A DNA stretch of 64,000 nucleotides from Deltaproteobacteria bacterium (GCA_002687015.1 NYZB01000239.1:2657-66656), one strand, 5' to 3'; shown: positions 6,968-23,640, numbered from the stretch's first letter. Translations and numbers: made by a program. Notes: generated by a model from the sequence alone, not told the origin.

Positions 6968-6984
6968 GGTGCTTCCTGTCTCCT

Positions 6985-8160
6985 CTAGTCGGCCTGGCCG
7001 AGGATCATGGCGCTCGTGGGAACGCCGACGCCGGAGGTGACGAGCACGTGGTCGTTCTTCTCCGGCTGGTTGGTGGAGGTGCCCCGGATCAGGCGCGTGC
7101 CCTCGAGGATGCCGTTGACGCCGTGGATGTAGGCCTCGGAGAGCTGACCACCGTGGGTGTTGGTGGGCAGCTGCCCGCCCTTGGCGCTGAGCGCTCCGTC
7201 CTTCACGAAGTCCTTGGCCTCGCCGGGCCCGCAGAAGCCGAAGCTCTCGAGCTGCATCAGCACGATCGAGGTGAAGGCGTCGTAGATGATCGCCGCGTCC
7301 ATGTCGGAAGCGCTGAGCCCGGACTGCTCCCAGATCTGCTTGCCCACCAGCTCCATCTCCGGAATGTTGGAGATCTGCGGCCGGTAGAAGCTGGTCATCT
7401 GCTCCTGGTCGTCGCCCGAGGCCTGGGCGATGCCGCGAATCACGGCGGCCTTCTGGGGCAGGTCCCTGGCGCGTTCGGGCGTGGTGACGACCACCGCGCA
7501 GCCACCGTCGGTCTCCTGGCAGCAATCGTAGAGGCGCAGCGGCTCGCAGATGAAGCGCGCGTTCATGTACTCGTCCATCGAGAGCGGGCGCTTGTGGAAG
7601 AAGGCCTTCGGGTTGTTCACGGCGTGGTCGCGCGTCGCGATTGCCACCTCGGCCAGATCCTCGGGCTTGGCGCCGAAGTCGTGCATGTAGCGCTGGGTGA
7701 ACATCGCCACCCAGCTGGCCGGCGTGAGCAGGCCCCAGGGCATGTACCAGCTCCAGTGGATCAGGTCGGAGGTGATGATGTCGCCCGACACGCCATCGCT
7801 GTAGCGCTGACCCGAGCGACCGTTGAGCGCCCGAAAGGCCACCACGTACTTCGAAGTGCCCGTCGCCACGGCCATGGCCGCCTGGTGGACGATGCTCGTC
7901 GCCGCGCCGCCGCCGTAGCCGATCTTGCTGAAGAAGGTGAGATCGCCGCAACCGACGCTGCGCGCCACCTCGATCTCGTCGTTGGAGTCGAGCTGGAAGC
8001 CCGTGATGCCGTCGACGTCGCTGGGCTCGATGCCCGCGTCGTCGATCGCCTTGCGCACGCACTCGGAGGCCAGAGCGAGCTCCGACACGCCGGAGTTCTT
8101 CGTGAAGTCCGTCTGGCCGATTCCGACGATCGCGGCTTCGTTGTTCAATGTGGTGCCCAT
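6985..8160 (-). CDS. thiolase-fold lipid-transfer protein (Ltp2/SCP-x-type, putative retro-aldolase)
   Basis: The 391-aa sequence MGTTLNNEAAIVGIGQTDF...DCCQETDGGCAVVV...NTHGGQLSEAYIHG is typical of nonspecific lipid-transfer/Ltp thiolase-like proteins. Confidence 0.85.
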   Translation of the reverse strand: MGTTLNNEAAIVGIGQTDFTKNSGVSELALASECVRKAIDDAGIEPSDVDGITGFQLDSNDEIEVARSVGCGDLTFFSKIGYGGGAATSIVHQAAMAVATGTSKYVVAFRALNGRSGQRYSDGVSGDIITSDLIHWSWYMPWGLLTPASWVAMFTQRYMHDFGAKPEDLAEVAIATRDHAVNNPKAFFHKRPLSMDEYMNARFICEPLRLYDCCQETDGGCAVVVTTPERARDLPQKAAVIRGIAQASGDDQEQMTSFYRPQISNIPEMELVGKQIWEQSGLSASDMDAAIIYDAFTSIVLMQLESFGFCGPGEAKDFVKDGALSAKGGQLPTNTHGGQLSEAYIHGVNGILEGTRLIRGTSTNQPEKNDHVLVTSGVGVPTSAMILGQAD

Positions 8161-8164
8161 GTCC

Positions 8165-8584
8165 TCAACCTCCCACCGGAAGCGCCACGGTGACCGTGCC
8201 TTCCACGTGGTTGCCCCACGAGTTCTTTCCCACGACCTCGACCACCACCGTGCCGTCGGCGCCGGCCTCGGTGACCTTGCCGCGCATCTTCATGGTGTCG
8301 CCGGGCAGGTTCGGGGTGCCGAGCTTGATCGCCAGACCCTTGATCTGCGCATCCGTGCCCGCCCAGTCCGTCACATAGCGACCCACGTAGCCGTTGGTGG
8401 TGAGGATGTTCATGAACACGTCGCCCATGCCCGCGGCGTTGGCCGCTGCGCGGTCGTGATGGACCGGCGTGTAGTCCCGAGAGGCCAGGGCGCCGCCGAC
8501 GATGATCGAGGCGGTGAGCGGCACGTCGAGCGGCGGAAGCTCGTCGCCGACACTCACGTCGGAGAAGGAGAGGGAAGTCGTCAC
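8165..8584 (-). CDS. MaoC-like (R)-specific enoyl-CoA hydratase small subunit (ChsH1-like hotdog)
   Basis: ORF 8165..8854 trimmed to GTG 8584 (VTTSLSFSDV), which makes a GTGA overlap with the upstream ACAD stop. Hotdog motif RDYTPVHHD. Confidence 0.8.
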   Translation of the reverse strand: MTTSLSFSDVSVGDELPPLDVPLTASIIVGGALASRDYTPVHHDRAAANAAGMGDVFMNILTTNGYVGRYVTDWAGTDAQIKGLAIKLGTPNLPGDTMKMRGKVTEAGADGTVVVEVVGKNSWGNHVEGTVTVALPVGG

Positions 8585-9720
8585 GATCGATCCTCCATGG
8601 GCCCGTGCTGGGCCAGGTCGCGGCCGAGCCAGGCGAGCTGCGGCGCGGCCGAGCCCAGGTTGTGCTCCAGCGCGCGCGCCCACAGGAAGTAGCGCTGGAT
8701 GGGGTAGTCGACGTCGGAGCCGATGCCGCCGTGCAGGTGCACGGTGCCGTTGGCGATGCGGGCGCCCGCTTCCGAGGCCCAGTACTTGGCCACCGCTGCG
8801 TCCCGGGCGGCCGGCTGGCCCTCTGCGAGCTTCCAGGCCGCCCGCCAGGTGCACCAGCGAAGCGCCTCCAGGTCGATGAAGCCGTCGGCAGCGCGGTGCT
8901 GCACCGCCTGGAAGCTGCCAATCGGCACGCCGAACTGCTCGCGCTCGGTCACGTAGCCCGCGGTGATCGCGAGGGCCTCGTCCGAAACGCCCATCTGCAA
9001 GGCGGCGATCCCGACGAGAGCGCGCTCGACCAGCCAGGAGAGCATCTGGTCGCCGCCCGCGTCGGCGCCGCCGAGCCGATCCTCCTCACTCACGAGGACG
9101 CCGGCGAGGCGGAGATCGGAGAGCTTCCCGCCCGACGACGTGCGGCTGGTCTCGAGGTTGACGCCGGTCGCACGGGGATCGACCAGGTAGACGGCGCAGC
9201 CGGCTCCCGTATCGGCCGGCACCAGGATGCGCTCGGCCCGGTCGGCCACGGGAACGAGACGCTTCAGGCCTTCGAGCACGAAGCCGTCGCCCTCGGGCTT
9301 CGCGAGCGTGGCCGGCGCCAGGGCATCGGCCGAGCCCGCGTCCACGAGAGCGGCGGTCAGCAGGGCCTGGCCGGAGGCCACCTTCGGAAGCCAGGTGGCC
9401 TGCTGCGCGGGCGTGCCGAACTCCGCGATCGGCAGCGCGCCGAGCACCAGAGTCTCCAGCACCGGGATCGGTGCGACCCTGCGGCCCACTTCCTCGAGCA
9501 GGCAGCACAGCTCGAGGAAGCCCATGCCCATCCCGCCCTGCGCCTCGGGGATCGCCAGCCCCACGAGGTTGGCCTCGGCCAGATGGGCCCAGAGCTCCTC
9601 GTCCAGACCGCTCGGGCTGGCTGCGGCCTCCTTCACGCGTTCGGTCGTGGCCTCGTTCTGCAGGATGTCCCGCGCGAGCTCGCGCACCGTCTCCTGCTCT
9701 TCGGTGAACTCGAAGTTCAT
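8581..9720 (-). CDS. acyl-CoA dehydrogenase family protein
   Basis: 379-aa protein starting MNFEFTEEQETVRELARD, with FGVPIGSFQAVQHRAAD and VHLHGGIGSDVDYPIQRYF. Confidence 0.9.
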   Translation of the reverse strand: MNFEFTEEQETVRELARDILQNEATTERVKEAAASPSGLDEELWAHLAEANLVGLAIPEAQGGMGMGFLELCCLLEEVGRRVAPIPVLETLVLGALPIAEFGTPAQQATWLPKVASGQALLTAALVDAGSADALAPATLAKPEGDGFVLEGLKRLVPVADRAERILVPADTGAGCAVYLVDPRATGVNLETSRTSSGGKLSDLRLAGVLVSEEDRLGGADAGGDQMLSWLVERALVGIAALQMGVSDEALAITAGYVTEREQFGVPIGSFQAVQHRAADGFIDLEALRWCTWRAAWKLAEGQPAARDAAVAKYWASEAGARIANGTVHLHGGIGSDVDYPIQRYFLWARALEHNLGSAAPQLAWLGRDLAQHGPMEDRS

Positions 9721-9730
9721 GCCCTGCCCT

Positions 9731-10708
9731 TCAGCCCGCGCGGCGGAAGACGGGCAGCTTCATGCCGTCTTCGCCCTCTTCGACGCTCCCCTGCACCGCC
9801 ATACCGACGTGCAGGTCCTCGGGCTTGCAGTCGACCATGTTGGACATCAGGCGCGTGCCTTCCTCCAGGTCGACGAGCACGGCGAGGATCGGGAAGTCGT
9901 AGCCCGGGAACTGCGGGTGGTGGATCACCGTGAAGGTGTGGATCGTCCCCTTGCCCGAAGACGTCACGTAGCCCATGTCCATGGCGCCGCACTTGCCGCA
10001 CATCGGCCGCGGCGGGTGGAAGAGCTCGCCGCACTGGTTGCAGGTCTGGATCGGGATCTTGCCGGCGTCCACCTCCGCCCACCAGGCGCTGTTGTCGTGG
10101 CCGCGCGGGGCCGCGATGCGCGCCGGTGCGGACGAAGCCGGCGTGTCGGATGCGTCGGCCTGCTGCGGCTGCTGTTGGGGGATGAACTTCAGCACGCGGA
10201 AGGTCAGCCAACCGACCTCTTCGCCGTCCTGGTCGGTGAACTTCGTGCGGGTGTTGATGAAGTACCCGATGCCCAGGGCCGTGGCCTTCTCCTCGGAGAT
10301 CTCGTCGATGAAGGTCTCCGCGGTGACGGTGTCTCCGGGCTTCAGGTAGCGCGTGTAGCCCTGCTCGGTGTTGGTCGCGACCACCGAGGTGTAGCCGTGC
10401 TCGGTGAGCAGCTTGTGGAGCCGGTGCTCGTTGTTGCGCGGCTCGTCGTAGCCCTCGTGCATCGAGAAGCCTTCCATGGTCCAGGCCTGGAGCATGGTCG
10501 GGGGCGCCACGAGGTCGCCGTGCACCGAGCTCTTCGCGGCGTCCGGGTCCAGGTAGGCGGGGTTGGTATCGCCCATCGCATCGCACCACTGCCGGATCAT
10601 CGGCTCGTTCACGACGTCGCGGCCGGGCGTGGGCTCGCTGATCGGCTTGCCCACGTACTCCTGCATCTGGGCTTCGAGCTCTTTCTTCTGGTCGGGGGTC
10701 AAGGGCAT
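9731..10708 (-). CDS. MaoC_N hotdog hydratase subunit fused to a DUF35 OB-fold/zinc-ribbon domain (ChsH2-like)
   Basis: ORF 9731..11392 trimmed to MPLTPDQKKELEAQ. The N-half is hotdog-like (NPAYLDPDAAKSSVHGDLVAPPTM). The C-half has the DUF35 ribbon CNQCGELFHPPRPMCGKCG followed by an OB-like segment. Confidence 0.8.
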   Translation of the reverse strand: MPLTPDQKKELEAQMQEYVGKPISEPTPGRDVVNEPMIRQWCDAMGDTNPAYLDPDAAKSSVHGDLVAPPTMLQAWTMEGFSMHEGYDEPRNNEHRLHKLLTEHGYTSVVATNTEQGYTRYLKPGDTVTAETFIDEISEEKATALGIGYFINTRTKFTDQDGEEVGWLTFRVLKFIPQQQPQQADASDTPASSAPARIAAPRGHDNSAWWAEVDAGKIPIQTCNQCGELFHPPRPMCGKCGAMDMGYVTSSGKGTIHTFTVIHHPQFPGYDFPILAVLVDLEEGTRLMSNMVDCKPEDLHVGMAVQGSVEEGEDGMKLPVFRRAG

Positions 10709-10716
10709 GGGGGCTC

Positions 10717-11898
10717 CTAGCGGCGGGCGCGCGGCAATCGCATGCCGGCGCCCGCAATGATGTCGCGCTGCACTTCGTTGACCCCGCCTCCGAAGGTGTT
10801 CACCATCGCAAGGCGGTAGGCGCTCTCGAGGAGGCCCCCGAAGAGCGCGCCGGGCTCGCCGCCGCGCACCAGGCCGGCCTGGCCGGTCATCTCCTGGAGC
10901 AGGCGGTAGCAATCGATCACGATCTCGGTGCCGAAGACCTTCACGGCCGAGGCCTCGGCCATGCCGGGCGTGCCCTGGTCGATCTGCCAGGCCGAGCGCC
11001 AGTTCAGCACCTTGAGCGCCTCGAGCCGCGCGTAGACCTTGGCCAGGTTGGCCTGGACCCAGGGCTCGTCGACCAGCCGGCCGCCACCGGGCCGCTCGAC
11101 CTTCTCCGCCCAGGCCCATACCTCGCCGAAGAGCCGGTCGAGGCTGGCCGGCATGGCCAGGGTGATGCGCTCGAGGTTGAGCTGGCCGGTGATCAACCCC
11201 CAGCCACCGTTCACGGGCCCGATCGTGTTCGAGACCGGCACCCGGATGTTCTCGTAGAAGGTGGTGTACGTGATCTCGCCACCGATGGTGGTGATCGGCA
11301 TCGCCGAGTAGCCGGGATCCGAGGTCGGCACCAGGATGATCGAGATGCCCGCGTGCTTCTTGGCATCCGGATCGGTGCGACAGGCCAGCCACACGTAGTC
11401 CGCGTCACCCGCGTGGGTGGTGTAGACCTTCTGGCCGTTGATCACCCAGTCGTCGCCATCGCGCACCGCGCGGGTCTGCAGCGAGGCGAGGTCGGTGCCC
11501 GCGCCCGGCTCGGTGTAGCCGATCGAGACGACCAGCTCGCCGTCCCGGATCCTGGGCAGCAGCAGCTCCTTCTGCTCGTCGGTGCCGTGCTGCATGACCA
11601 TCGGCCCGACCGTGTTCACCGTGATGAGCGGCAGGGGGGCGCGCGCGCGGTAGGTCTCGTCCCAGAAGATGAACTGCTCGATGTGGCCGCGGCCCCGGCC
11701 GCCGTACTCCTCGGGCCAGCCGATGACCAGCCAGCCGTCCTTGCCCATGCGCCCCATCGCCTCGCGGAAGGCCGGCCCACCCATCAGGTCCCATTCTTCA
11801 TCGAGCCTGCGGCGCAGGTCTCCCTGGAACAGCCCCTGGTAGTAGCCCCGCAGCTCCTGGCGCAGAGCCTTCTGCTCCGGAGTGAAATCGACGTGCAT
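10717..11898 (-). CDS. acyl-CoA dehydrogenase family protein
   Basis: ORF 10717..11928 trimmed to MHVDFTPEQKALRQELRGYY. Contains YTEPGAGTDLASL and NTFGGGVNEVQRDIIA. Confidence 0.9.
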   Translation of the reverse strand: MHVDFTPEQKALRQELRGYYQGLFQGDLRRRLDEEWDLMGGPAFREAMGRMGKDGWLVIGWPEEYGGRGRGHIEQFIFWDETYRARAPLPLITVNTVGPMVMQHGTDEQKELLLPRIRDGELVVSIGYTEPGAGTDLASLQTRAVRDGDDWVINGQKVYTTHAGDADYVWLACRTDPDAKKHAGISIILVPTSDPGYSAMPITTIGGEITYTTFYENIRVPVSNTIGPVNGGWGLITGQLNLERITLAMPASLDRLFGEVWAWAEKVERPGGGRLVDEPWVQANLAKVYARLEALKVLNWRSAWQIDQGTPGMAEASAVKVFGTEIVIDCYRLLQEMTGQAGLVRGGEPGALFGGLLESAYRLAMVNTFGGGVNEVQRDIIAGAGMRLPRARR

Positions 11899-11982
11899 GA
11901 AAGGCCTCGCGCAGAAGGCCCCACCCACGCCCGCCGGTCACGCAATCAACAGGGAGCGGGGGGAGCCGCGACGGGCCCGAAT

Positions 11983-11996
11983 TGAAACATGTTCTA
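11983..11996. promoter_or_regulatory. putative KstR-type (TetR family) operator
   Basis: TGAAACATGTTCTA fits the TnnAACnnGTTnnA pattern at all eight specified positions. It lies in a local AT-rich patch about 85 bp upstream of the ACAD start at 11898. Confidence 0.45.
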
Positions 11997-12074
11997 GTTT
12001 TGCGGTCAAGGGGCTCCCCGCGGGGCATTCTCAGCCAGCCCACTTGCCGTCAACCCAGGGATCTGGCCCCTGTG

Positions 12075-12623
12075 TCAGCCCCGGGTCTCCCGGATCCGGA
12101 AGACGTCGTGGCCCGTCGGGCCTCCGCGGGGCTCGTGCTCGATCTCGATCGTGGTTCCGAAGCGCGTGGCCAGGCCGTGGAAGAGGCCTGCGACCATGGG
12201 GGCCAGGCCGAGGCGCTCCGAGCTGTAGTGGACCTCGTAGAGGCCCTCTCTCTCGACCTTGCAGACGAAGCTCGGCGGGCGCAGCTCGGGGAAGATGCCG
12301 CCCAGGCGGGTGTGCAGCGCATCGAGCTGCTGGAGGAACTCGGCGAGGGTGGCACCGGTGAGCTCGAGCAGGTCGCCGTAGCCCTCGCGGGTGGCGAAAT
12401 CGACCCACGACTCGCCGAGCTGGAAGAGCAGCTCGTCGGCCGGGACGCCTGTCTGGTTGGACGCAGTGCCGATCAGGTCGAAGCTGAGCTGGTCGGGATA
12501 GGGCTCCATCGTCACGAAGTCCTGCAGGTCGGGATCGACCTCGTCGCGCACGCGGCGCCAGAGGGGCTCGCCGAAGCGGTCGACGAGCAGCCGCTCGATC
12601 GCGCGGTTCACGAGCCCGTACAT
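12075..12623 (-). CDS. H-NOX (heme nitric oxide/oxygen-binding) sensor protein
   Basis: Starts MYGLVNRAIERLL, the canonical H-NOX N-terminus. Proximal-His context QLDALHTRLGGIFPELRPPSF. YxSxR heme-propionate motif present (HYSSER). Confidence 0.9.
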   Translation of the reverse strand: MYGLVNRAIERLLVDRFGEPLWRRVRDEVDPDLQDFVTMEPYPDQLSFDLIGTASNQTGVPADELLFQLGESWVDFATREGYGDLLELTGATLAEFLQQLDALHTRLGGIFPELRPPSFVCKVEREGLYEVHYSSERLGLAPMVAGLFHGLATRFGTTIEIEHEPRGGPTGHDVFRIRETRG

Positions 12624-13816
12624 TCGACCTCCGCGCTGGCGCGGCCGATCGCGCCGAGCAGCGCCTCGCTGCCGAAGGGCTTGTGGAGGAAGAGCGCACG
12701 CGGGTCGCCCTGCAGGAGCTCGGCCACGCGCTCCCCCGTGTAGCCGCTCATCAGGACGATGGGCAGGAAGGGGAGCTTCTCGCGCAGGGCGCGGTAGACG
12801 TGGTCGCCGGTCATGCCGGGCATCGAGAGATCGAGCAGGACGCAGGTGAGCTCGTGGCCGATCTCGCGGCACAGCGCCAGGGCACCCTTGCCGTCGGCGA
12901 CCGCGACCACCTCGAAGCCCTTGCGCTCGAGCATGCGCCCCGTGGTGGCGCGCACGCGGGGGTCGTCGTCGACGAGGAGCACGCGGCCGCGGACCGCCGG
13001 CAGGGCTGCACGCGGTGCCACAGGCTCTCGTGCCTCGGCCTCCTGGGGCGCCAGCGGGAAGAGCACCCGGATCTTCGTGCCCCGGCCGGGCTCGCTGGTG
13101 ACGCACACCACCCCCTCGTGCCGGCGCACGATGCCGAAGACCACCGCCATGCCCAGGCCGCGGCCCAGCAGCTTGGTCGAGAAGAAGGGATCGAAGACCC
13201 GCTCGAGGACCTCGGCCTCCATGCCCGGTCCGTTGTCCTCGACCTCCAGGTAGGCGTAGGAGGCCGTTGCATCGAGCTCACCGATCACGAGCGCCTCGGC
13301 CCTGGTCTCACCCGGCCGCTGCTCCCCCGTGCGCAGCACCACGCGGCCGCCCTCGGCCCCGCAGGCCTCGCTGGCGTTGAGCACCAGGTTCAGGAGCACC
13401 TGCCGTACCTGCGTGGGGTCGGCCCGCAGCCCCCCGGGCGTGGGCCCCAGCTCGAAGCGCACGGCCATGCCCTGGGTGCTGGCCCGCACGAGCTCGCGCA
13501 TGTCATCGATCAGCGAGTCGAGGGCCAGCGCCTCGAGCCGCACCGGCGTGCGCCCCGCGTAGGAGAGCATCTGCTGGCACAGGTCGGTGGCGATGCCCGC
13601 GGCCTGGAGGATGTCGTCGGCGGTGCGCTGCGTGTCCTCGTCGGGGCAATCCTCGCGCAGGAGCTCCGCACCCGCGACGATGGGCACCAGCAGGTTGTTG
13701 AAGTCGTGCGCCACGCCGCCGGCCAGGACGCCCAGGCTCTCGAGCCGCTCGGCCTCCTTGACCCGCTGCTCGAGGTGGGCGCGCTCGTCCCGCCCGCGGC
13801 GCACCTCTTCCATTTC
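12608..13816 (-). CDS. hybrid histidine kinase, 3' fragment (DHp-HATPase-receiver) of an IS-split gene
   Basis: Sequence MEEVRRGRDERAHLEQRVKEAERLESLGVLAGGVAHDFNNLL carries the H-box. Also has the N/G boxes (LNLVLNASEA, DNGPGM, GRGLGM) and a C-terminal REC domain (VLLVDDD...LDLSMPGMTG). The ATG lies inside the IS target duplication. Confidence 0.85.
   Translation of the reverse strand, partial: EMEEVRRGRDERAHLEQRVKEAERLESLGVLAGGVAHDFNNLLVPIVAGAELLREDCPDEDTQRTADDILQAAGIATDLCQQMLSYAGRTPVRLEALALDSLIDDMRELVRASTQGMAVRFELGPTPGGLRADPTQVRQVLLNLVLNASEACGAEGGRVVLRTGEQRPGETRAEALVIGELDATASYAYLEVEDNGPGMEAEVLERVFDPFFSTKLLGRGLGMAVVFGIVRRHEGVVCVTSEPGRGTKIRVLFPLAPQEAEAREPVAPRAALPAVRGRVLLVDDDPRVRATTGRMLERKGFEVVAVADGKGALALCREIGHELTCVLLDLSMPGMTGDHVYRALREKLPFLPIVLMSGYTGERVAELLQGDPRALFLHKPFGSEALLGAIGRASAEVECTGS
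13808..13816. repeat. target-site duplication, left copy (TTCCATTTC)
   Basis: Identical 9-mer at 15033-15041, directly abutting the IS inverted repeats. Confidence 0.8.
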
Positions 13817-15032
13817 GGTTGTGTTCCGAAGATTGTGGCCCGTGGGCGAGAAGGGATGAGCCCGCGGTAGGTTGCAGCGGTTTCACCCGACGAAGCGCCG
13901 TTGCGGCGGCTGGGCGCAGCGGCGCGCGCGGGTCGGGACCTTCCCTTCGTAGTAGGGGCGCCATCGCGCGGGGAGGGCGACGCGGGTCGGAAAGCGCCGC
14001 TTCGCCAGGATCTCCGGGGTCGTCAGCCGGTGGTCCGTGAGGCCCAGGACCTGGGCCGGGGTCTCGTCGCGCCGCTTCTCGCTGCGTGACTTCTGGTAGT
14101 TCACCCACACCGCGAAGATCGCCACCCGCTCCATCGCGCTCTGGCGGCGCTTCGAGAACGCGATCGTCTCGCGCTTGTGGTTCGCTCCCCCGTGGCGAAG
14201 GAGAAGATCCATCCGGTTGACCGGGAAGAGTGGGTTGGCGGTGGTCCGGGCTCGCTTCGAGGAGGTCACGCGGTGGCGCACCCGCACGCCGTCGACCCGG
14301 GAGAAGCCTCGCGGATAGGCCGGATGCTCATCCGTCCGCAGCTCCACGTAGGCCCCGGGAGCCGCTACGAGGCCGAGGAGGGCGGCCATCTCCCGCTCGA
14401 GGGCCTTGGGGTCGGGCCGGCCATGGCGACGCTCGAGCTCTGCGCGTCGCTCCTTCTGGCCTCGGGTCATGCGGCCCTTGCGCCGCAGCTCGGCATCGGT
14501 GAAGGCGTAGAGGAAGTGGCTCTCGGCACCCACGGCCAGGTTGGCGTGGAAGGGGTAGTACTGGGAGTGCTCGAAGGTCTCGAAGCCGTCGAGGGCCAGG
14601 GGCTCAGAGGGGGGCCCCGGGGGCCGATGGTCCTGCAGGAAGAGCAGAGCCTGGCGTCCCAGCCGGGTCGTGTGGGTCTGGACGGTCGAGGGCGAGACGC
14701 CCTGGGCGCGGGCGATCTGCCGGAAGCCCGAGCAGGCGACCAGGCCCTCGTAGACGGCCGAGAGCAGCGCGGGCCGACGCAGCCAGTAGGTGACCGAGAA
14801 GGTCTGTGAACTGAAGGTGCGACGGCAATGGGAACAGCGGTACCGCTGGATCCGGCGGGGGACCGCGTGTCGCCGGTAGAAGCCGTGGCGCAGGGCGCGC
14901 CAACCCCGCGGATCCCCATGGAAAGGGCAGCTCGGGTTGGGACAGTGGGGAGGTTCGAAGCCAGCGCGGCGGCCCGTCATGCCCTCCCAGCACCGCAAGC
15001 CCCGTGCCATCCACATTCGTCGGGACACAACC
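13817..15032 (-). mobile_element. IS1-family-like insertion sequence (single-ORF type), 1216 bp
   Basis: Terminal inverted repeats GGTTGTGTTCCGAAGATTG (13817-13835) and rc GGTTGTGTCCCGACGAATG (15014-15032) match at 16 of 19 positions. Ends fit GGnnnTG. 9-bp TSD. One transposase ORF nearly fills the element. Confidence 0.8.
13883..15028 (-). CDS. IS1/IS1595-like DDE transposase with N-terminal zinc ribbon and HTH
   Basis: Zinc-ribbon motif CPNPSCPFHG...YRCSHCRRTFS. HTH-like FRQIARAQGVSPSTVQ. Candidate DDE residues in LALDGFETF, ELRTDEHPAY and HKRETIAF. The true start may be an internal Met. Confidence 0.7.
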   Translation of the reverse strand: MSRRMWMARGLRCWEGMTGRRAGFEPPHCPNPSCPFHGDPRGWRALRHGFYRRHAVPRRIQRYRCSHCRRTFSSQTFSVTYWLRRPALLSAVYEGLVACSGFRQIARAQGVSPSTVQTHTTRLGRQALLFLQDHRPPGPPSEPLALDGFETFEHSQYYPFHANLAVGAESHFLYAFTDAELRRKGRMTRGQKERRAELERRHGRPDPKALEREMAALLGLVAAPGAYVELRTDEHPAYPRGFSRVDGVRVRHRVTSSKRARTTANPLFPVNRMDLLLRHGGANHKRETIAFSKRRQSAMERVAIFAVWVNYQKSRSEKRRDETPAQVLGLTDHRLTTPEILAKRRFPTRVALPARWRPYYEGKVPTRARRCAQPPQRRFVG

Positions 15033-15041
15033 TTCCATTTC
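15033..15041. repeat. target-site duplication, right copy (TTCCATTTC)
   Basis: Identical to 13808-13816. Confidence 0.8.
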
Positions 15042-15575
15042 TTCTTGCAGCCGCTCGTTGACCACGCGCAGCTCGCGCTTCTGGTCCGCCAGCTGCTTGG
15101 AGAAGCGCCGCGCCTCGGCCAGCGAGGTGCTCTGGCCCTGCATCGCGAACAGGTGGTCGGGCACGGATTCGTAGGGCGGAAAGTCCGCCAGCCCGAGCCC
15201 CATGCGCCGCAGCTCGTCCAGGCTGTGGACGAGGATCGTGGTGAGCAGGAAGACGACCCCGCGCGAGGGGACCGCCTGGGCCCGCAGCCGCACCGGCCGG
15301 GCGCGGCACTCGATCAAGAGCGGCCGGTTCTCGAGCCCGGCCGGGTCGAAGCGCGAGAGCAGGGGCCGCAGGAACCGGAAGTGGTCGTCGAAGGCCGCGC
15401 CGACGCGCAGCTCCGGGTCCAGCCGCTCCCAGGCCCGCCCGAGCTGGAGGATCTCCCCATCGGGCGAGACCCCCACATGAAAGGGAATCACCGCGCACAG
15501 CACTTCCGGGTCGAGCGTGAAACCGCTCTCCCCTGCGTTCCGCTCGAACTCTGCGGACACGATCCCCCCGAACAC
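15033..15575 (-). pseudogene. 5' fragment of the IS-split kinase: HNOBA/PAS-like domain plus coiled coil
   Basis: The first 181 codons of ORF 14604..15575 (GTG start) resemble sGC beta1 (FPFHIIFD...[23 protein letters not shown]): IPFHVGVSPDGEILQLG...LDELRRMGLGLADFPPYESVPDHLFAMQGQ...KRELRVVNERLQEEME. After EEME the frame reads into IS sequence. Confidence 0.75.
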
Positions 15576-15627
15576 CTGGCGCGACCGACCGGAAAGTAAC
15601 CAGCGTTTGGGGGATCTGGGATCGGGG

Positions 15628-15654
15628 AAGACCTGATGCCGGGCATCGGGTCTT
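15628..15654 (-). terminator. near-perfect 27-nt palindrome/hairpin (terminator of the upstream operon, or an operator)
   Basis: AAGACCTGATGCC-G-GGCATCGGGTCTT lies 32 nt downstream of the 15686 stop and 53-79 nt upstream of the 15575 start. No U-tract. Confidence 0.3.
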
Positions 15655-15685
15655 ACCCTGACTTCTCAACGAGGTCCGAAGAGCG

Positions 15686-16594
15686 TCACGACCCGCGTCG
15701 GAGGGCGATGCCGTGCTTCTCGACCAGGCGGTAGATGGAGGCGCGGCTCCGGCCCATCCGGGCGGCCGTCTCGGCGACGTTGCCGCCGGTGGCATCGAGA
15801 AGCTCCAGCAGCTCGCGACGCTCGGCGAGCTGCTGCCTCTCCCGCAGGTCGGCCACCGAAGGCCGCAGCTCTTCGAGCACGGCCTCCACTTCCCTAAGAC
15901 CGATCCGGGGAGCCGGCGTGAAGGCGATCAACCGCTCGACGACGCGACGAAGCTCGTGAAGATTGCCGGGCCAACGCTCGCGACCCAGGCGACGAAGGGC
16001 ACCGTCGGTGAAGCTCGCTTCGGTTCGGCCGAGCTCGGCTCCGACCTCGCGGGCCAGATGGGAGACGAGCTCCGGCAGGTCTTCCATGCGCTCTCGCAAG
16101 GAAGGCAGGCGGACCTCGAAGCGGGTCAGGAGGCGCGCGAGGGTCGCATCGAAGGAGCCCGACGTGATCGCATCGAAGAGGGTGGGGCTTGCGGAGGCGA
16201 GGATCCGGGCCTCGCTGCGGGTGCCTTCGATCAGCGGCAGCCACCGGGCCTGGGCCTCGTCGGAGAGGCTCTCCAGGCCCATGAGGAAGAGGGTGCCGCG
16301 AAGCGGGATCGCCTCGAGAGCGCGCCCTTCCCGGGCATCCACCTGGACGAAGGGTGCTCCGGGGTGGAGGCCCTGCTCGTGGAGGAAGTGCGCGGCCCTC
16401 CATCGACCCGTCCCGGGCTCGCCCGCCAGAAGGACGGGAGCGCAGAGTGGCGCCAGACCCCAGAGCCACTCCCGAACCCGATGGATGACGGCGCTGCTCC
16501 CGACCAGGGGGGCGCCCGGCCCGGGTGCGTCGCGTCGAAGCGCCCCCTCAGCGACCGGTTCCACTCGAGCTGCGTGTGCGCTGCGGGAATCCAA
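15686..16594 (-). CDS. degenerate sigma-54-activator-like (AAA+ remnant) regulator with Fis-type HTH
   Basis: Has LLAGEPGTGRWRAA (Walker A Lys replaced), TLFLMGLESL (Walker B DE lost), no GAFTGA loop, WPGNLHEL, and the C-terminal HTH GGNVAETAARMGRSRASIYRLVEK. Confidence 0.8.
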   Translation of the reverse strand: MDSRSAHAARVEPVAEGALRRDAPGPGAPLVGSSAVIHRVREWLWGLAPLCAPVLLAGEPGTGRWRAAHFLHEQGLHPGAPFVQVDAREGRALEAIPLRGTLFLMGLESLSDEAQARWLPLIEGTRSEARILASASPTLFDAITSGSFDATLARLLTRFEVRLPSLRERMEDLPELVSHLAREVGAELGRTEASFTDGALRRLGRERWPGNLHELRRVVERLIAFTPAPRIGLREVEAVLEELRPSVADLRERQQLAERRELLELLDATGGNVAETAARMGRSRASIYRLVEKHGIALRRGS

Positions 16595-16699
16595 GGGCTA
16601 CGCCTCCATTCAGGGGTCGGGTCTACGGCGACAGACTACGGCGCAGCCCTGGGCCTCGAAGCCGGAGAAAGAGCGGGAAAGCGTCAAAGATCGCCAAGA

Positions 16700-17917
16700 T
16701 CAGGTCGAGAGGCCGTGCTTCTTGAGCCGGTAGGCGACGGCACCGCGTGTCACCCCCATCCGACGACTCATCTCCGCCACGTTGCCACCGCACTCCGCCA
16801 GTAGCGCCACCAGCTCCTCGCGTTCGGCGTGGTACCGGGCGAGCCGGCGTTTCACGAGGCCGTCGTTTCGCTCGGCGACCATCAGGCCGATCGACTCCTC
16901 GACACGAGCGCGTGTCAGGAAGCCCCCTCCCGAGAGCGCCACCGCCTTTTCCATGACATCGGCGAGATCGGTCACGTTCCCGGGCCACGAATGGGACGCA
17001 AGGGCGTCCAGAGCATCGTCGGAGACCCGCACGGGGTGGCATCCGAGCTCTCGCGCGGCCTCCTGGGCCAGGCTCGCGGCCAGGGCGCCCAGATCCCCGA
17101 GGCGGTCGCGGAGAGCAGGGAGCGCCACGACGCAGCTCGTGAGCTCCTTCCAGAATCGCGGAGGAATGGAGCCCTGCGATCCACCGCAGGTCGCGAAGAT
17201 GCGCTGGACCGGGGAGCTACCTCCACGGACTCGATGCAGCTCGGTGTGCCACATTCTCTGATCACGAGCCGAGAAGCGATCGAGCTCTCGCAGCACCACC
17301 TCGCAGCGGATCGTCGGAATCGATGCGTCGTCGCCGTCGGTCACCTGCAGAGGCAGCTCCGGCGCGCTCAGCTCGTGCAGGACGCGGGCCGCGCGGCAGC
17401 GCCCGCTTCCGCGCTCGCCTTCGATCACGACGGGGGAGCGCAGCCGTGCGAACATGCGAAGGCGCCGCTGCGCCTCCACCACCAGCTCGGAGCTTCCATC
17501 GAGCAGTGCATCCGCGGCGTCGGCGGTCGCGATCCCCCGCCGGCCGAGCAGCTCGAGGACCACGTCTGGGAGCCTCTCGAGATCGTCGGGAAAACGCAGG
17601 TAGTCGTCGGCCCCGCTGCGCATGGCCGAGACGGCGGCAGGGATCTCCGCGTGAGCCGTGAGCAGCACGACCGGGACGCTCGACACGCCTCGAATGCGTC
17701 GCAGGAGGTCGAATCCGTCGGTCGAAGGCATGCGGACGTCCGAAACGACGAGGTCGGGCTCCTCGTCCTGGAAGACGAGCCATGCTTCGGCGCCGTCGGT
17801 TGCGGTCAAGACCCTGCATTCGGGGCCGACCAGCTCGTCGGCAATGACGGAGAGCGCGTCCTCGCAATCGTCGACCACGAGGAGCGTCGCGACGGCCTCT
17901 TGCGCCTCAACCGCCAT
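16700..17917 (-). CDS. response regulator: receiver + degenerate sigma-54-activator-like AAA+ remnant + Fis-type HTH
   Basis: REC domain (LLVVDDCED...DLVVSDVRMP...LLTAH). Central region IEGERGSGRCRAAR, VVLRELD, no GAFTGA, WPGNVTDL. HTH GGNVAEMSRRMGVTRGAVAYRLKK. Confidence 0.85.
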   Translation of the reverse strand: MAVEAQEAVATLLVVDDCEDALSVIADELVGPECRVLTATDGAEAWLVFQDEEPDLVVSDVRMPSTDGFDLLRRIRGVSSVPVVLLTAHAEIPAAVSAMRSGADDYLRFPDDLERLPDVVLELLGRRGIATADAADALLDGSSELVVEAQRRLRMFARLRSPVVIEGERGSGRCRAARVLHELSAPELPLQVTDGDDASIPTIRCEVVLRELDRFSARDQRMWHTELHRVRGGSSPVQRIFATCGGSQGSIPPRFWKELTSCVVALPALRDRLGDLGALAASLAQEAARELGCHPVRVSDDALDALASHSWPGNVTDLADVMEKAVALSGGGFLTRARVEESIGLMVAERNDGLVKRRLARYHAEREELVALLAECGGNVAEMSRRMGVTRGAVAYRLKKHGLST

Positions 17918-20213
17918 CGTTCGCTCGGGGTCGGGGGCGCGAGATCCACCCCAGCCCGCTGACCATCGCGGGGAGAAGGATTAGATCGGCCACCAACGCC
18001 CCGGCCACCGCGAGCGCACTGAGCAGACCGATGTTCGCGACGCTTTGAAAGGACGAAACCAGCATCGTCGAGAAGCCCAGCGAGAGCGCCAGCGAGGTCG
18101 TGACCAGGGCACGCCCCACGGACTCGACCGCCTTCCGGATGGCCGCCTCCCCCGGATCTCCGTCGCGCCGATGGCGCAGGTACCGGGACATGACGTGGAT
18201 CGTGTCGTCCACGGCGATGCCCAGGGCGAGGGGAGCGACCATCGAGGTGCCAACGTCCAGTGCGATGCCCAGCGAACCCATGGCACCCAGCAGGATGGCG
18301 ACGGGAAGCAGGTTCGGGACCAGCGCGAAGAGGCCCCATCCGATGGAGCGGAGGAACACGACGAGAAGCAGGAACACCAGGAGAGCCGCGATCGAGAAGG
18401 AGCGAAGCTGGGTGCGCCGAATCGACTCGACGGAGGCCTGGCTCAGCATCAGGGGACCGGTCAGAACCACCTCCCAGTCGGCGGGGATGTGGGTCGCGAT
18501 CAGACCCTGGAGCGCGGAGAAGACCCGAATCCGATCCGCCTGCAGCAGGCGACCTGCCTCCAGGGAGATGCGAGCCTGCCGCCCATCGATCGAGAGCCAG
18601 GGGTCGAGCACCTCTCCACCTCCCACCGAGGCCAGCATGAGGAGCTCTCCAACTTCCTGGGGAGAGGTCGGTAGCTCACCGGGCCCCGTGTCTGCTCCCG
18701 TCGCCTCCCTGAGCACCAGCAGGTTGTCGACGACCGAGCGGGCCCTTCCCAACCCGGGCACCCGCTCGGCCCGTCGGGAGAAGTCGTGGATGGAACGCAC
18801 TGTGGCCGGCTGGTAGATCGAGTCCTGCGAGGGAAGCCGCAGCTCGAGCTCCAGCGAATCGGGCTTCCGGAGCTTGCGCTCGAAGAAACGAAGGGCCTGG
18901 GGAACCGCTTCTCCCGGCTCCCAGTACGAGTAGATGTCGACCTCGGTCCTGATCTTTCCGAGACCCATAGAAGCCATGAGGCCGAGGGGCAGGGCGAGTG
19001 CAATCACGAGCTTCCACTTCCCGATCGCCAGGTCTCCGATTCCCCGTACGATCGGCCGCCACGATGACGAATGGGCAATCGAAGTCGAGCTCTCGACGGG
19101 GAGCAGAACCAGGACGGCAGGCAACAACGAGAAGCAGAAGAGGAACGCGAACCCCACACCCGCTGCGGCCAGCACCCCGAAGCGGGCCAGGCCGAGGACA
19201 TCGCTGCTCCACAGGGAGACGAAGGCGCTCGCCGTCGTGAGGGTCGTCATCAGACAAGGCGCCGCCAGGCTTCGGGCGGCGCTGGCCAGGGCCCTGCGCG
19301 GATCGGAGTCGTCGATCCGGAAGTGGGCGTAGGCCGAGAGCAGGTGGATCGCATCGGCTGCGGCGACGACGAGAACCATGCTCGAGACGGCCGTGGTCAC
19401 GGGGTCCAGCGGCCAGCCCGCCACGCCCATCAAACCGAACACCGCCGCGGTGGCGCACCCGACGTTCAGCATGACGGCCAGGACGGCCTGCCAGGATCGC
19501 GTGAGCCCGAGGATGACCACGAAGATCACCACCGATGCACAGAGGCCGACGAGTATCCCATCCGTCGCCGCCGTCTCCAGGATGGCCGTTTCGACCACGG
19601 GTTGACCCAGGAGGAAGAACTCGAAGCCCAGGGCCCGAAAGGAAGCGAGCTCCGCGTCGATCGCATCGACGGCCAGGAAGATCTCCTCGCTGTCGGCGGA
19701 GTTCATCTCGACGACCAGCGCACCGACGAGGCCATCGGCGGAGACCACGTTTCCCAGCCAGGTCGGGTCCTGGAGCGCCAGGAGGGCGAGCCCTTCCCGA
19801 TCCGGAACGACGGAACCGTCTTCGACCAGGTGTCGGACGGCGAGCCCACCCCCGGGCTCCGCAACGAGCAGGGGGCTCGTCGCCGGGCTCGCCACAGCGC
19901 GTACGTAGGGGAGCCGATCGAGGCCGGAGGCCACCCGAGCGGCCATGAGCAGAGAGCCGTCGTCGAGTGCAGAATCACAGGCGCCGGACGGGCCGCATGC
20001 CCAGCCGATCAGGACGGGATACCCGCCCCCGAACTGGTCGATGAAGCGGTCGAAGTCCTTCACCGCGGGATGCTCACGTCCGAGCTGGGCGCGCGGACCG
20101 ACCAGGGTCTTCTGATCGGTGAGGGTGCCCAGCGAGGCCGCCAGCAGGAACAGGACCAGGGCGACGATCGTCCGCGGATACCGCATCGACGCTTCGGCCA
20201 TCCGGACGATCAC
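17907..20213 (-). CDS. MMPL/RND-superfamily exporter (COG1033-like, two 6-TM bundles)
   Basis: 768 aa with a duplicated architecture of periplasmic loop plus 5-6 TM clusters. GTGA overlap with the kinase stop. 11-nt overlap with the downstream regulator. Confidence 0.8.
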   Translation of the reverse strand: MIVRMAEASMRYPRTIVALVLFLLAASLGTLTDQKTLVGPRAQLGREHPAVKDFDRFIDQFGGGYPVLIGWACGPSGACDSALDDGSLLMAARVASGLDRLPYVRAVASPATSPLLVAEPGGGLAVRHLVEDGSVVPDREGLALLALQDPTWLGNVVSADGLVGALVVEMNSADSEEIFLAVDAIDAELASFRALGFEFFLLGQPVVETAILETAATDGILVGLCASVVIFVVILGLTRSWQAVLAVMLNVGCATAAVFGLMGVAGWPLDPVTTAVSSMVLVVAAADAIHLLSAYAHFRIDDSDPRRALASAARSLAAPCLMTTLTTASAFVSLWSSDVLGLARFGVLAAAGVGFAFLFCFSLLPAVLVLLPVESSTSIAHSSSWRPIVRGIGDLAIGKWKLVIALALPLGLMASMGLGKIRTEVDIYSYWEPGEAVPQALRFFERKLRKPDSLELELRLPSQDSIYQPATVRSIHDFSRRAERVPGLGRARSVVDNLLVLREATGADTGPGELPTSPQEVGELLMLASVGGGEVLDPWLSIDGRQARISLEAGRLLQADRIRVFSALQGLIATHIPADWEVVLTGPLMLSQASVESIRRTQLRSFSIAALLVFLLLVVFLRSIGWGLFALVPNLLPVAILLGAMGSLGIALDVGTSMVAPLALGIAVDDTIHVMSRYLRHRRDGDPGEAAIRKAVESVGRALVTTSLALSLGFSTMLVSSFQSVANIGLLSALAVAGALVADLILLPAMVSGLGWISRPRPRANDGG

Positions 20214-22594
20214 CGGCAGGCCTCCCCCTCGCTCGTCAGGGCCGAGGCCGCGTAGGGGATCCGGATCCTGACCGTCGTGCCCAGGCCCACTTCCGACGAC
20301 AGCTCCAGCACCCCGCCCAGGCGGGCGATGATGTCGCGCGAAATGGAGAGGCCCAGGCCCGACCCGCCCTCCCGGATCCGCACGAAGGGCTCCTGGATCC
20401 GCCGCAGCTCACCGTTCGCGATGCCGCAGCCCTCGTCCCGCACCGTGATCTCCACCCCACTCCCCATCTCGGTGATGGCAAGGTCGACGACGCTGCCGTC
20501 TTCGGAGGCGCGGAGCCCGTTGTCGATCACGTTCACGAGAACGCGACTCAGGCGCTGCACTTCCGGCGGGAAGCCGCGCGTCGCGGGGAAGGGGTGAACG
20601 ACCACCCTCCCCGGGCCATGGATCTGATCGACCTCGGCCAGTGCGACCGCCACGACATCCGGAAGCTCGACGGTCGGCTGCTCGAGTGCACCGGAGAGGG
20701 GATCGAGGATGCCGCGGACGATCTTCCGCAGGTCGCTCGCCAACCGGGAGATCGTCCGGAGGGCGCCCGTCAGATCCCCGTCGTCCGGCCACCTGCGGGC
20801 GAGCCGCGCGGCCATCACCTCGAGGGTCCCGAGCGGCTTTCCGATCTCGTGGGCCAGCTCTGCATGGATCCTTCCTCTGGCGGCAAAGCGATCGGCCACG
20901 ACCAGGGCCTCGGTCAGCACGGCGTTCTCGAAGGACACGGCGAGCTGCGAGGCAATCGACGTGAGAAAGGCCAGCTGTCCGACGGGGAAGAGCACACCGG
21001 GCCGGCGGGGGCTCACCAGGATCCAGCCGAAGACCCCCCTGCGGCCTCGAATCGGACAGCTCACCTGGACACCGAGGTCGTAGAGCCGTTGCCCCTCGAG
21101 GTCGAGATCGCACCGGTTGAGATCGACCGGAGCTTCGACGGAGAGCCGCTCGGCGATCGATACGGCATCGGGATCGGTGCAGGCTCGAGGGCCGGAGGCC
21201 GTGGCGAGGCGAAAGCCGCCTCCCTGAGGTACGAAGATCGCGTTCTCGGCGTCTCGCAGCCCCTTGGCCAGCACCGCCGACGCACGACGCGCGACCCAGT
21301 CGATGTCCCCGGGATCGCCGTTGGTGGGGAAGTCCGCGTCCAGGCGAAGGTGATCCCAGCGAGCCGGTCGGAAGGCCGCCGTCGTGAAGCTCTTGATCCA
21401 GGCGCGAAGGAGATCGAGTGGCGAGACGAGACAGAAGATGGTCGCGAAGAGCACGGGGGGTGCGCGAATGACGTCGGGGACCTGGATCGAATCCCGGAAC
21501 AGGAGCACCGGGACGAAGACCAGCGCCGAAACCGACATCAGATACGCGAGGTGCGCGGCCACGGCCCGCACCCACACATCGAGATCGAAGAGCTGATAGC
21601 GCGCAATCGCGTATCCCAGGGGAAGCGGAGAGAGGGCAGCTCCGACCGTCACGGCGGGAATCCCGCCGCCCGGGGGATCGAGGGCGTGCGCGGCGATCGT
21701 CAGAGCGCCGAGACTGGAGACTCCGAGGAGGAAGGCCCGGCATTGCCGCCGCCGAAGCAGAGAGGGCGACTCCCGGGCAGCCAGGTAGCTGGCCAGGCAG
21801 AGCAGGACGAAGGCTCCCACGGCCGCGGCAAGGAGAACCTGCTGGACCACGATCATCGTCGAGTCCGAGGACCGGTAGGCGGAGTCGACTTCGACGAGCC
21901 ACAGGACGAGAGCGATCCCGTAGAGGACGAAGCGGAGGGCCGGCACTCGCACGATCGACTCCCGCCGGGTGGGGAATACCAGGGCGAGATCGGCGAGGGC
22001 GGCAGGAAGCAGCGCCCTGGCCGCGGCGGTGATGGGGTAGCTCTCCACGGTGGATCCGCCGAGGATCGACTCGACCATCAACGCGCCAACCGCAGCGTAG
22101 AAGATGGCGAAGGGCACCGATGCAGCGACGTCGGCGCGAACTGCCGTGAGACAGGCGATGAGAAGCAGCATCGCGCCCAGGACCAGGGAAGAGATCAGGC
22201 GCGCCCATCCCTGTGCCCGACTCTCCTCGTGGAGTCGCACTTCGACCTCGGAGAAGGGAGGCCCAGCGAGGCCCACGCGAAGGCTTCGGGACTTCTCTTC
22301 CCCGATGAGGTGCAGGATCTCGGCGGCCGAGTTCACGAACTGCGCTCGTTCGCCGACCTCGAGCGTGACGATTCGCGATCCGTAGGAGAGCGGGCATCCG
22401 TCATCCGGGCTTGCCGAGAGGGCGACGACCGCGTTCGGATAGAGGGGACAGGGGAAGTGGTCCCGCGCCGAAACGACCAGGGCCTGAAGGGAAAGGAGGA
22501 GGACGGCCGCCAGGGGGATCGCAGAGACGGTGCCGAGCAGCACGGCCCTGCCGGCCCTTCTCTTGGAGCCCCGAGTGTCCACCGGTTGGCGCAT
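20210..22594 (-). CDS. multi-TM sensor histidine kinase
   Basis: 794 aa. N-terminal extracytoplasmic segment, then about 8 hydrophobic helices and a cytoplasmic linker. H-box AELAHEIGKPL. HATPase motifs (NVIDNGLRAS, DEGCGI, GSGLGL). Confidence 0.85.
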   Translation of the reverse strand: MRQPVDTRGSKRRAGRAVLLGTVSAIPLAAVLLLSLQALVVSARDHFPCPLYPNAVVALSASPDDGCPLSYGSRIVTLEVGERAQFVNSAAEILHLIGEEKSRSLRVGLAGPPFSEVEVRLHEESRAQGWARLISSLVLGAMLLLIACLTAVRADVAASVPFAIFYAAVGALMVESILGGSTVESYPITAAARALLPAALADLALVFPTRRESIVRVPALRFVLYGIALVLWLVEVDSAYRSSDSTMIVVQQVLLAAAVGAFVLLCLASYLAARESPSLLRRRQCRAFLLGVSSLGALTIAAHALDPPGGGIPAVTVGAALSPLPLGYAIARYQLFDLDVWVRAVAAHLAYLMSVSALVFVPVLLFRDSIQVPDVIRAPPVLFATIFCLVSPLDLLRAWIKSFTTAAFRPARWDHLRLDADFPTNGDPGDIDWVARRASAVLAKGLRDAENAIFVPQGGGFRLATASGPRACTDPDAVSIAERLSVEAPVDLNRCDLDLEGQRLYDLGVQVSCPIRGRRGVFGWILVSPRRPGVLFPVGQLAFLTSIASQLAVSFENAVLTEALVVADRFAARGRIHAELAHEIGKPLGTLEVMAARLARRWPDDGDLTGALRTISRLASDLRKIVRGILDPLSGALEQPTVELPDVVAVALAEVDQIHGPGRVVVHPFPATRGFPPEVQRLSRVLVNVIDNGLRASEDGSVVDLAITEMGSGVEITVRDEGCGIANGELRRIQEPFVRIREGGSGLGLSISRDIIARLGGVLELSSEVGLGTTVRIRIPYAASALTSEGEACR

Positions 22595-22602
22595 GGCGCT
22601 CC

Positions 22603-23478: not shown

Positions 23479-23640
23479 CCGCAGCGCGGAAGGGGATGGG
23501 CTCCATTTCCTCACAGGACGAGTGCGCCAAAGGTCAGGAGATCTTCAATTCCCCATCGATCTCGACGTGACGGTCCCCCTGGGGTCAAACCGGCTTCGGC
23601 GGGCCGGACGCGAAGTCCCCTCTTCCCGGCCACGAGGCCG

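Follow-up and report, generated by a model that had tools for sequence, protein, structure and literature searches.

We analyzed positions 12075–15575 of a 64,000-nt stretch of DNA (the window) from an uncultured marine Myxococcota/"Deltaproteobacteria" metagenome-assembled genome (MAG), where the gene for a stand-alone H-NOX protein directly adjoins the gene for a hybrid histidine kinase with an N-terminal HNOBA domain, and where that kinase gene is split by an insertion sequence (IS). The region has a G+C content of ~70%, and the H-NOX gene, both kinase halves and the transposase gene all lie on the minus strand. Its features, with the evidence for each, are as follows.

12075..12623, minus strand: stand-alone H-NOX (HNOB) protein, 182 aa (Pfam, PDB match, heme residues, sequence)
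12608..13807, minus strand: 3' part of the kinase, residues 182–580, comprising the end of the signalling helix, DHp, HATPase and receiver (open reading frame, Pfam, motifs)
13808..13816, no strand assigned: likely target-site duplication, copy 1, TTCCATTTC on the plus strand (direct repeat)
13817..15032, minus strand: IS of 1,216 bp that splits the kinase (inverted repeats, target duplication, open reading frame)
15033..15041, no strand assigned: likely target-site duplication, copy 2, TTCCATTTC (direct repeat)
15033..15575, minus strand: 5' part of the kinase, residues 1–181, comprising the HNOBA/H-NOXA PAS-like domain (~18–125) and then the signalling helix (~137–181 onward) (Pfam, phmmer, AlphaFold2, Foldseek)

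The H-NOX gene and the interrupted kinase gene

The H-NOX protein begins MYGLVNRAIE, with a GGAGG ribosome-binding site 4 nt 5' of its ATG; a MAG protein at NCBI with the name "heme NO-binding protein [Deltaproteobacteria bacterium]" has the identical sequence (100%). It matches the Pfam family HNOB (PF07700) with 148 bits (cutoff 25.5) over profile positions 1–163 of 163. A PDB search returned Nostoc sp. Alr2278 as the closest solved structure (E 4.5e-47, 47–48% identity), followed by the beta1 subunit of soluble guanylate cyclase (sGC) at E ~1e-27, with the Thermoanaerobacter and Shewanella types far weaker. When the protein is aligned to Alr2278, its His104 (in LDALH) falls on Alr2278 His105 and its Y133/S135/R137 on Y134/S136/R138 of the YxSxR motif, while Trp73, Pro117 and Met143 are common to both proteins. 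These heme columns are near-invariant among 122 aligned relatives (H 121/122, Y 122/122, S 117/122, R 122/122); with W73 and P117 included, the same residue occurs in 117–122 of the 122. The proximal His and YxSxR motif named in the original prediction are thus in place, and the protein, which keeps all canonical heme-pocket residues, is predicted to be heme-competent. From its identity to Alr2278, a protein that binds NO and CO, together with W73 and M143, it would bind heme with NO-selective chemistry (five-coordinate Fe-NO, no O2; NO, nitric oxide).

The kinase gene is not a single uninterrupted coding sequence, since the IS lies between codons 181 and 182. Deletion of the IS and one repeat copy joins 15575..15033 to 13807..12608 in frame, to give a protein of 580 aa in which HNOBA, signalling helix, DHp, HATPase and receiver follow one another; candidate starts of the 5' part are GTG 15575 and GTG 15560, and the junction without the IS would read ...CTGCAAGAAGAAATGGAAGAGGTGCGC.... 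On this reconstruction, Pfam reports HNOBA (PF07701) with 43.2 bits (cutoff 23.4, E 4e-11) and no generic PAS family, HATPase_c with 74.7 bits and Response_reg with 63.9 bits. The catalytic motifs comprise an H-box with His215 (AHDFNNLL), an N box (NLVLNASEA), G1 (DNGPG) and G2 (GRGLG), and the receiver has its acidic pair Asp461/462 (DD461-462), the phospho-acceptor Asp507 and Lys557. With PF07701 matched above its cutoff and the heme-pocket residues present, the proposal of an HNOBA domain beside a heme-binding H-NOX held up on both counts.

An exhaustive HMMER scan of 1.8 billion representative proteins, with the N-terminal fragment of the kinase as query, found the 571-aa protein P0121, which is encoded in L011, a 5.8-Mb Myxococcota MAG chromosome (OZ245002.1); L011 was also the single locus returned by a genome-collection scan with a three-sequence alignment. 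The reconstructed kinase and P0121 are 60% identical over residues 18–573 and align without a gap across the IS junction, which reads ...NERLQEEME/EVRRGRDERA... in the reconstruction (the slash marking the IS) and ...NERLAAEMEAVQQARDERA... in P0121. This colinearity validates, at the level of sequence comparison, the protein of about 580 aa that had earlier been pieced together across the IS. Public gene calls for the locus (L001–L007) give the 3' part as a 401-aa open reading frame from ATG 13813, inside the target-site duplication, and leave the 5' part uncalled in these assemblies. Because this fragment is uncalled in public assemblies and its relatives are at most 49% identical, a word-indexed homolog search with the reconstructed N-terminal 205 aa gave no match.

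The IS is bounded by terminal inverted repeats of 22 nt (13817–13838 and 15011–15032; 86% complementary, ends GGTTGTG) and flanked by a perfect 10-nt direct repeat (13807–13816 and 15032–15041), nine nucleotides of which are likely the target duplication. Its transposase reading frame, 14980 (or 15028)..13883 on the minus strand, has the same orientation as the kinase and encodes 365–381 aa with an N-terminal zinc finger and helix-turn-helix (HTH). Inverted repeats of 22 nt and a target duplication of 8–9 bp are values typical of IS1. Assignment to the IS1 family was set aside, however, as the NCBIfam matches are N-terminal and below cutoff: NF033558 (IS1) scores 29.7 bits against 100 and covers the zinc finger/HTH only, the IS1/IS1595 zinc-finger domain is also below cutoff, and "IS1-like" is thus a mere lead. 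ISL3 reaches 32.9 bits against a cutoff of 180. The transposase has no Pfam transposase domain and no homolog in the plasmid collection; its homologs form more than 3,300 clusters, mostly of 365 aa on contigs of 1–2 kb with the JGI label "transposase-like protein", so that the family seems poorly catalogued, large and environmental. One copy of the IS is present in the window, and the exact transposase is recorded on three contigs.

An H-NOX of identical sequence is encoded on ten public contigs, assembled from Tara Oceans and other marine metagenomes, that match the window colinearly at ≥99.95% identity. Two of them span the whole IS and five begin 55–127 nt inside it, a pattern that also hints at the IS as a multi-copy repeat. 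None of these ten contigs has an empty site; wherever a contig extends as far as the site, it contains the IS, and this holds across several samples. An exact 29-mer of the empty site and a 30-mer of the IS end are both absent from the JGI metagenome collection, which probably lacks this organism. Contigs that stop just inside the IS show that assemblers had trouble there, as would be expected if the organism had an intact gene and the insertion had arisen as an artefact of assembly or binning. Two independent assemblies from different samples, as well as the window, nonetheless cross both junctions at ≥99.98% identity, and chimeric joins do not leave matched inverted repeats, a perfect target duplication and exact restoration of the frame; we consider an artefact hardly credible. 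The insertion is real and, as far as sampled, fixed, and in evolutionary terms it is probably a recent one, since neither half has acquired a stop or frameshift and no catalytic motif has been lost. The TGA stop of the kinase gene (12610..12608) lies within the H-NOX gene, so that the end of the one overlaps the start of the other by 16 nt; from this overlap the original prediction had deduced co-expression. The overlap itself is confirmed; co-expression of a working pair is doubtful, given that the kinase is disrupted in every contig reaching the site.

The sGC-like module and its spread in bacteria

A search of the PDB with the kinase N-terminus put first the H-NOXA/PAS domain from a signal transduction histidine kinase of Nostoc punctiforme (2P04/2P08, phmmer E 6e-11), and next sGC beta1 and alpha1 (phmmer 9e-5 for sGC). 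The by-eye alignments to sGC beta1 made earlier were reproduced by phmmer. In an AlphaFold2 model of this region (pLDDT 91.5), a PAS-like sheet precedes a helix longer than 40 residues (model residues 120–162), and Foldseek superposes the model on 2p04_A with a root-mean-square deviation of 1.6 Å over 103 columns and a TM score of 0.82 normalized to the target. All 23 Foldseek matches in the PDB at E ≤ 1e-3 are sGC alpha/beta PAS-coiled-coil regions or the Nostoc kinase PAS; not until past that value do generic PAS domains follow, weaker by 5–6 orders of magnitude. The PAS-plus-coiled-coil likeness to sGC is therefore real at the level of sequence and of the predicted fold.

The scan that returned P0121 also yielded 940 clusters of HNOBA relatives (at 50% identity) with E ≤ 1e-3, and 229 with E ≤ 1e-10. 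HNOBA begins within the first ~50 residues in 149 of the 150 best relatives. Among the best 72, Pfam finds HNOBA in 72, HATPase_c in 52, HisKA in 51, Response_reg in 30, PAS in ~30, GAF in 18, Hpt in 10, GGDEF in 7, EAL in 4 and SpoIIE in 4, so that HNOBA-HisKA-HATPase is the majority architecture of the bacterial HNOBA proteins sampled. In all four relatives sampled on long contigs, which include a Kofleriaceae MAG and a Planctomycetes MAG, the HNOBA gene lies directly downstream of an H-NOX gene; three of the partners are HNOBA-HisKA-HATPase-receiver proteins (one with Hpt), and the fourth is HNOBA-GGDEF-EAL (L012). An H-NOX with an HNOBA kinase is the standard arrangement of this H-NOX clade.

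These counts bear on the claim of the original prediction that the architecture is undescribed, with the sGC transduction module wired to a phosphorelay, and that it holds new information on how sGC evolved. In its favor, both the sequence and the predicted fold of the module do resemble those of sGC, and the well-studied HnoK and HqsK kinases, to our knowledge, lack HNOBA. The kinase also has an H-box of a minority type (HDFNN in 15 of the 150 relatives vs. HEIRTP in 92), and it precedes its H-NOX, whereas the order is reversed in the other four sampled loci. The same architecture beside H-NOX is nevertheless that of the Nostoc system, whose kinase PAS structure was released in 2007 and was solved as a model for sGC dimerization (PMC2576301, PMC8196705); the origin of its H-NOX is given as "from a histidine kinase operon" (PMC2576301, PMC2828450, PMC8196705). 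The HNOB and HNOBA domains were themselves defined in 2003 from bacterial signalling proteins and sGC together (cited in PMC1592074, PMC8196705). With the 2P04 match, HisKA/HATPase_c in 51–52 of 72 relatives and H-NOX adjacency in 4 of 4 sampled loci, the reading as an undescribed architecture is very improbable and, as a claim of novelty, already refuted; the evolutionary picture of sGC is unchanged. Iyer et al. reportedly proposed in 2003 that bacterial H-NOX/HNOBA modules were precursors of animal sGC, the arrangement having been described since then, and Ma et al. (2008) are said to have used the kinase PAS domain, with its structure released in 2007, as a model of sGC.

The closest known system is the Nostoc pair (Alr2278; the N. 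punctiforme kinase of 2P04/2P08), in which a stand-alone H-NOX gene likewise lies beside that of a cytoplasmic kinase with N-terminal HNOBA and a signalling helix. It provides the best solved-structure match for both window proteins, and the heme His, YxSxR and the equivalents of Trp74/Met144 are kept. It differs in that the window PAS is ~30% identical, belongs to another phylum (a Myxococcota MAG) and is joined to an HDFNN-type H-box, and in that the window kinase gene precedes and overlaps the H-NOX gene by 16 nt and is IS-interrupted. Animal sGC (beta1 H-NOX, PAS, coiled coil, cyclase) shares a homologous H-NOX and a homologous PAS with coiled coil (Foldseek E 6e-10, TM ~0.7 over ~165 columns); in the window, however, the H-NOX is encoded as a polypeptide of its own, DHp/HATPase/receiver takes the place of a class III cyclase as output, and the assembly is presumably a homodimer instead of an alpha/beta heterodimer. 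An H-NOX beside HNOBA-GGDEF-EAL, as in L012, belongs to the same H-NOX clade and has the same putative HNOBA docking module, yet its output is cyclic di-GMP turnover where that of the window is a phosphorelay.

H-NOX genes also lie beside histidine kinases in the HnoX/HnoK systems of Shewanella and Vibrio cholerae, the HqsK systems of Vibrio harveyi/parahaemolyticus and the SiliH-NOX/SiliHK pair of Silicibacter. HnoK and HqsK form a different, better-studied kinase subclass, and we know of no description of HNOBA in HnoK, HqsK or SiliHK. The H-NOX proteins of these systems are far from that of the window, the Shewanella-type PDB matches having E 3e-5 or worse. SiliHK is, like the window kinase, a hybrid, and it needs Hpt (PMC4436077).

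Signalling and present state of the pathway

Based on these comparisons, the locus is very likely a Nostoc-type NO two-component module, composed of a stand-alone heme H-NOX and a cytoplasmic hybrid HNOBA kinase, in which the kinase is split by the IS and the pathway is most likely inactive. In an intact pair, by analogy with the beta H-NOX in sGC, the H-NOX would dock on the HNOBA dimer and the signalling helix (PMC8196705). Binding of NO at the ferrous heme would break or strain the Fe-His104 bond, as in the Nostoc and Shewanella H-NOX proteins; the resulting shift would pass along the helix and alter autophosphorylation at His215. Phosphate could then move to Asp507 of the fused receiver, where the acceptor residues are present, and onward, by analogy, to an Hpt protein and a response regulator. 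All characterized H-NOX-associated kinases are inhibited by H-NOX in its NO-bound form, and hybrid ones relay through Hpt (PMC4436077). The window pair would, on this model, have had NO-controlled kinase activity. The IS cut, inside the signalling helix, separates the sensor-docking half from the catalytic half and so uncouples them, and the NO pathway of the window genome is therefore most likely inactive.

Several observations weigh against this assignment or parts of it. No uninterrupted allele turned up, though only a shallow search was made for one. HisKA scores 26.1 bits on the reconstructed kinase, just below the Pfam cutoff of 26.9 (28.3 in the ortholog P0121); of the domains called in the original prediction, HNOBA, HATPase_c and Response_reg are thus above cutoff, and HisKA is marginally below it with its H-box present. 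No Hpt was found in the window with an ad hoc hidden Markov model on six-frame open reading frames, which is a weak test. Both the direction in which NO would regulate the kinase and the site at which the H-NOX would dock are assigned by analogy. The 401-aa 3' reading frame starts at an ATG in the duplication, downstream of the co-oriented transposase, and so might still yield a kinase that lacks its sensor part. Finally, the HNOBA domain departs at three highly conserved positions, Pro114→Ile (Pro in 98%; FLGSPW→LLTTIL), His135→Tyr (His in 89%; HD→YE) and Phe110→Leu (Phe in 87%), at which its nearest relatives, P0121 and P0122, retain the consensus. Decay of HNOBA after the insertion was considered as a cause of such departures and rejected: 6 of 28 strongly conserved columns deviate, compared with a family median of 3 and a 90th percentile of 6, which is not significant, and P0122 likewise deviates at 6 of 28.

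The 401-aa fragment leads to a second account, according to which the split is no loss of function: the fragment is translated via read-through from the transposase gene, and the coupled H-NOX acts directly on DHp/CA, in the manner of HnoK. The frame opened by ATG 13813 does include every catalytic motif, the stretch from the transposase stop to this ATG is free of terminator-like sites, and the H-NOX retains a strong GGAGG and every heme residue. The apparent fixation of the insertion, in all contigs and several samples, is also in keeping with a retained function, and HnoK-type kinases are, as far as we know, regulated without HNOBA. On the other hand, the fragment has no recognizable ribosome-binding site ahead of ATG 13813 and no promoter-like site; a promoter and terminator scan of 11900–16800 found nothing above chance. 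The cut also shortens by ~45 residues the helix on which the register of the DHp dimer normally depends, and the H-NOX partner always carries HNOBA in the loci sampled (L011 and the other four), which argues that the domain is needed. We consider continued function of this kind improbable and retain the reading of a split kinase in a most likely inactive pathway.

The syntenic locus, neighboring genes and significance

L011 has the order histidine kinase, response regulator, MMPL transporter, Sigma54-like protein, HNOBA kinase, H-NOX and acyl-CoA dehydrogenase, and here too the H-NOX gene directly adjoins that of the HNOBA kinase. Common to L011 and the window are the 794-aa kinase, the receiver-AAA-HTH regulator, MMPL, the 302-aa Sigma54_activ_2 protein, the HNOBA kinase, the H-NOX and the acyl-CoA dehydrogenase; the sole difference in order is that regulator and transporter are exchanged. 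In the H-NOX of L011 (L011:7700-8248; Pfam HNOB 130 bits), Tyr replaces the heme-ligating His (LDALYARV vs. LDALHTRL), alone among the 122 aligned relatives, and the protein also deviates at Pro116, Met143, Val144 and Leu147. By its residues, this H-NOX may be heme-free, Tyr-ligated or decaying. In this marine Myxococcota lineage, two independent changes to the NO-sensing pair may be under way, one being the cut kinase of the window and the other the Tyr variant of L011. It is conceivable, though unlikely, that neither change is simple decay, with the 401-aa core still expressed and directly controlled by H-NOX and the L011 variant serving as a heme-free or differently ligated redox sensor.

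Two regulator genes lie upstream of the kinase in the window.

15686..16594, minus strand: Sigma54_activ_2 with AAA lid and HTH, 302 aa, no receiver, Walker A Lys→Arg (GEPGTGR) (Pfam, NCBIfam)
16700..17917, minus strand: response regulator with receiver, shortened/degenerate AAA+ and HTH_8, 405 aa (Pfam, NCBIfam; syntenic in L011)

The 302-aa protein occupies the same position by the intact kinase in L011, with 58% identity, and is a possible transcriptional partner of the kinase. The 405-aa protein is a candidate downstream regulator, or else the partner of the 794-aa kinase (20210–22594). It likewise has Arg in its Walker A motif (GERGSGR), and no GAFTGA loop was seen in either protein; judged by these motifs, both NtrC-like proteins look ATPase-dead and are probably sigma54-independent. 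Farther upstream, 17907–23514 on the minus strand holds a cluster of a LolA-like lipoprotein-sorting protein (303 aa), the 794-aa histidine kinase and an MMPL/HAE3-type RND transporter (768 aa). Downstream of the H-NOX gene, 6075–11928 on the minus strand is a beta-oxidation-like cluster with acyl-CoA dehydrogenases, a ChsH2-like hydratase, a MaoC dehydratase and thiolases. The first gene of this cluster shares 86% identity with its L011 copy, compared with 50–60% in the case of the signalling genes, whose divergence is therefore much faster than that of the metabolic genes beside them.

We know of no structure or biochemistry for the complex that an H-NOX forms with its HNOBA partner. For the structure of such a complex, the intact orthologs are better suited than the window pair, namely P0121 in L011 and the 537–547 aa kinases in L014 and L015. 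Such complexes "would provide more insight" (PMC8196705). The gene pair described here is a further, uncharacterized and apparently inactivated example of an arrangement already described, and it contributes a Myxococcota example of the H-NOX/HNOBA-kinase pair. The scan of 1.8 billion representative proteins confirms the sGC-like PAS-plus-helix module to be a common one among bacteria, found there mostly on histidine kinases.

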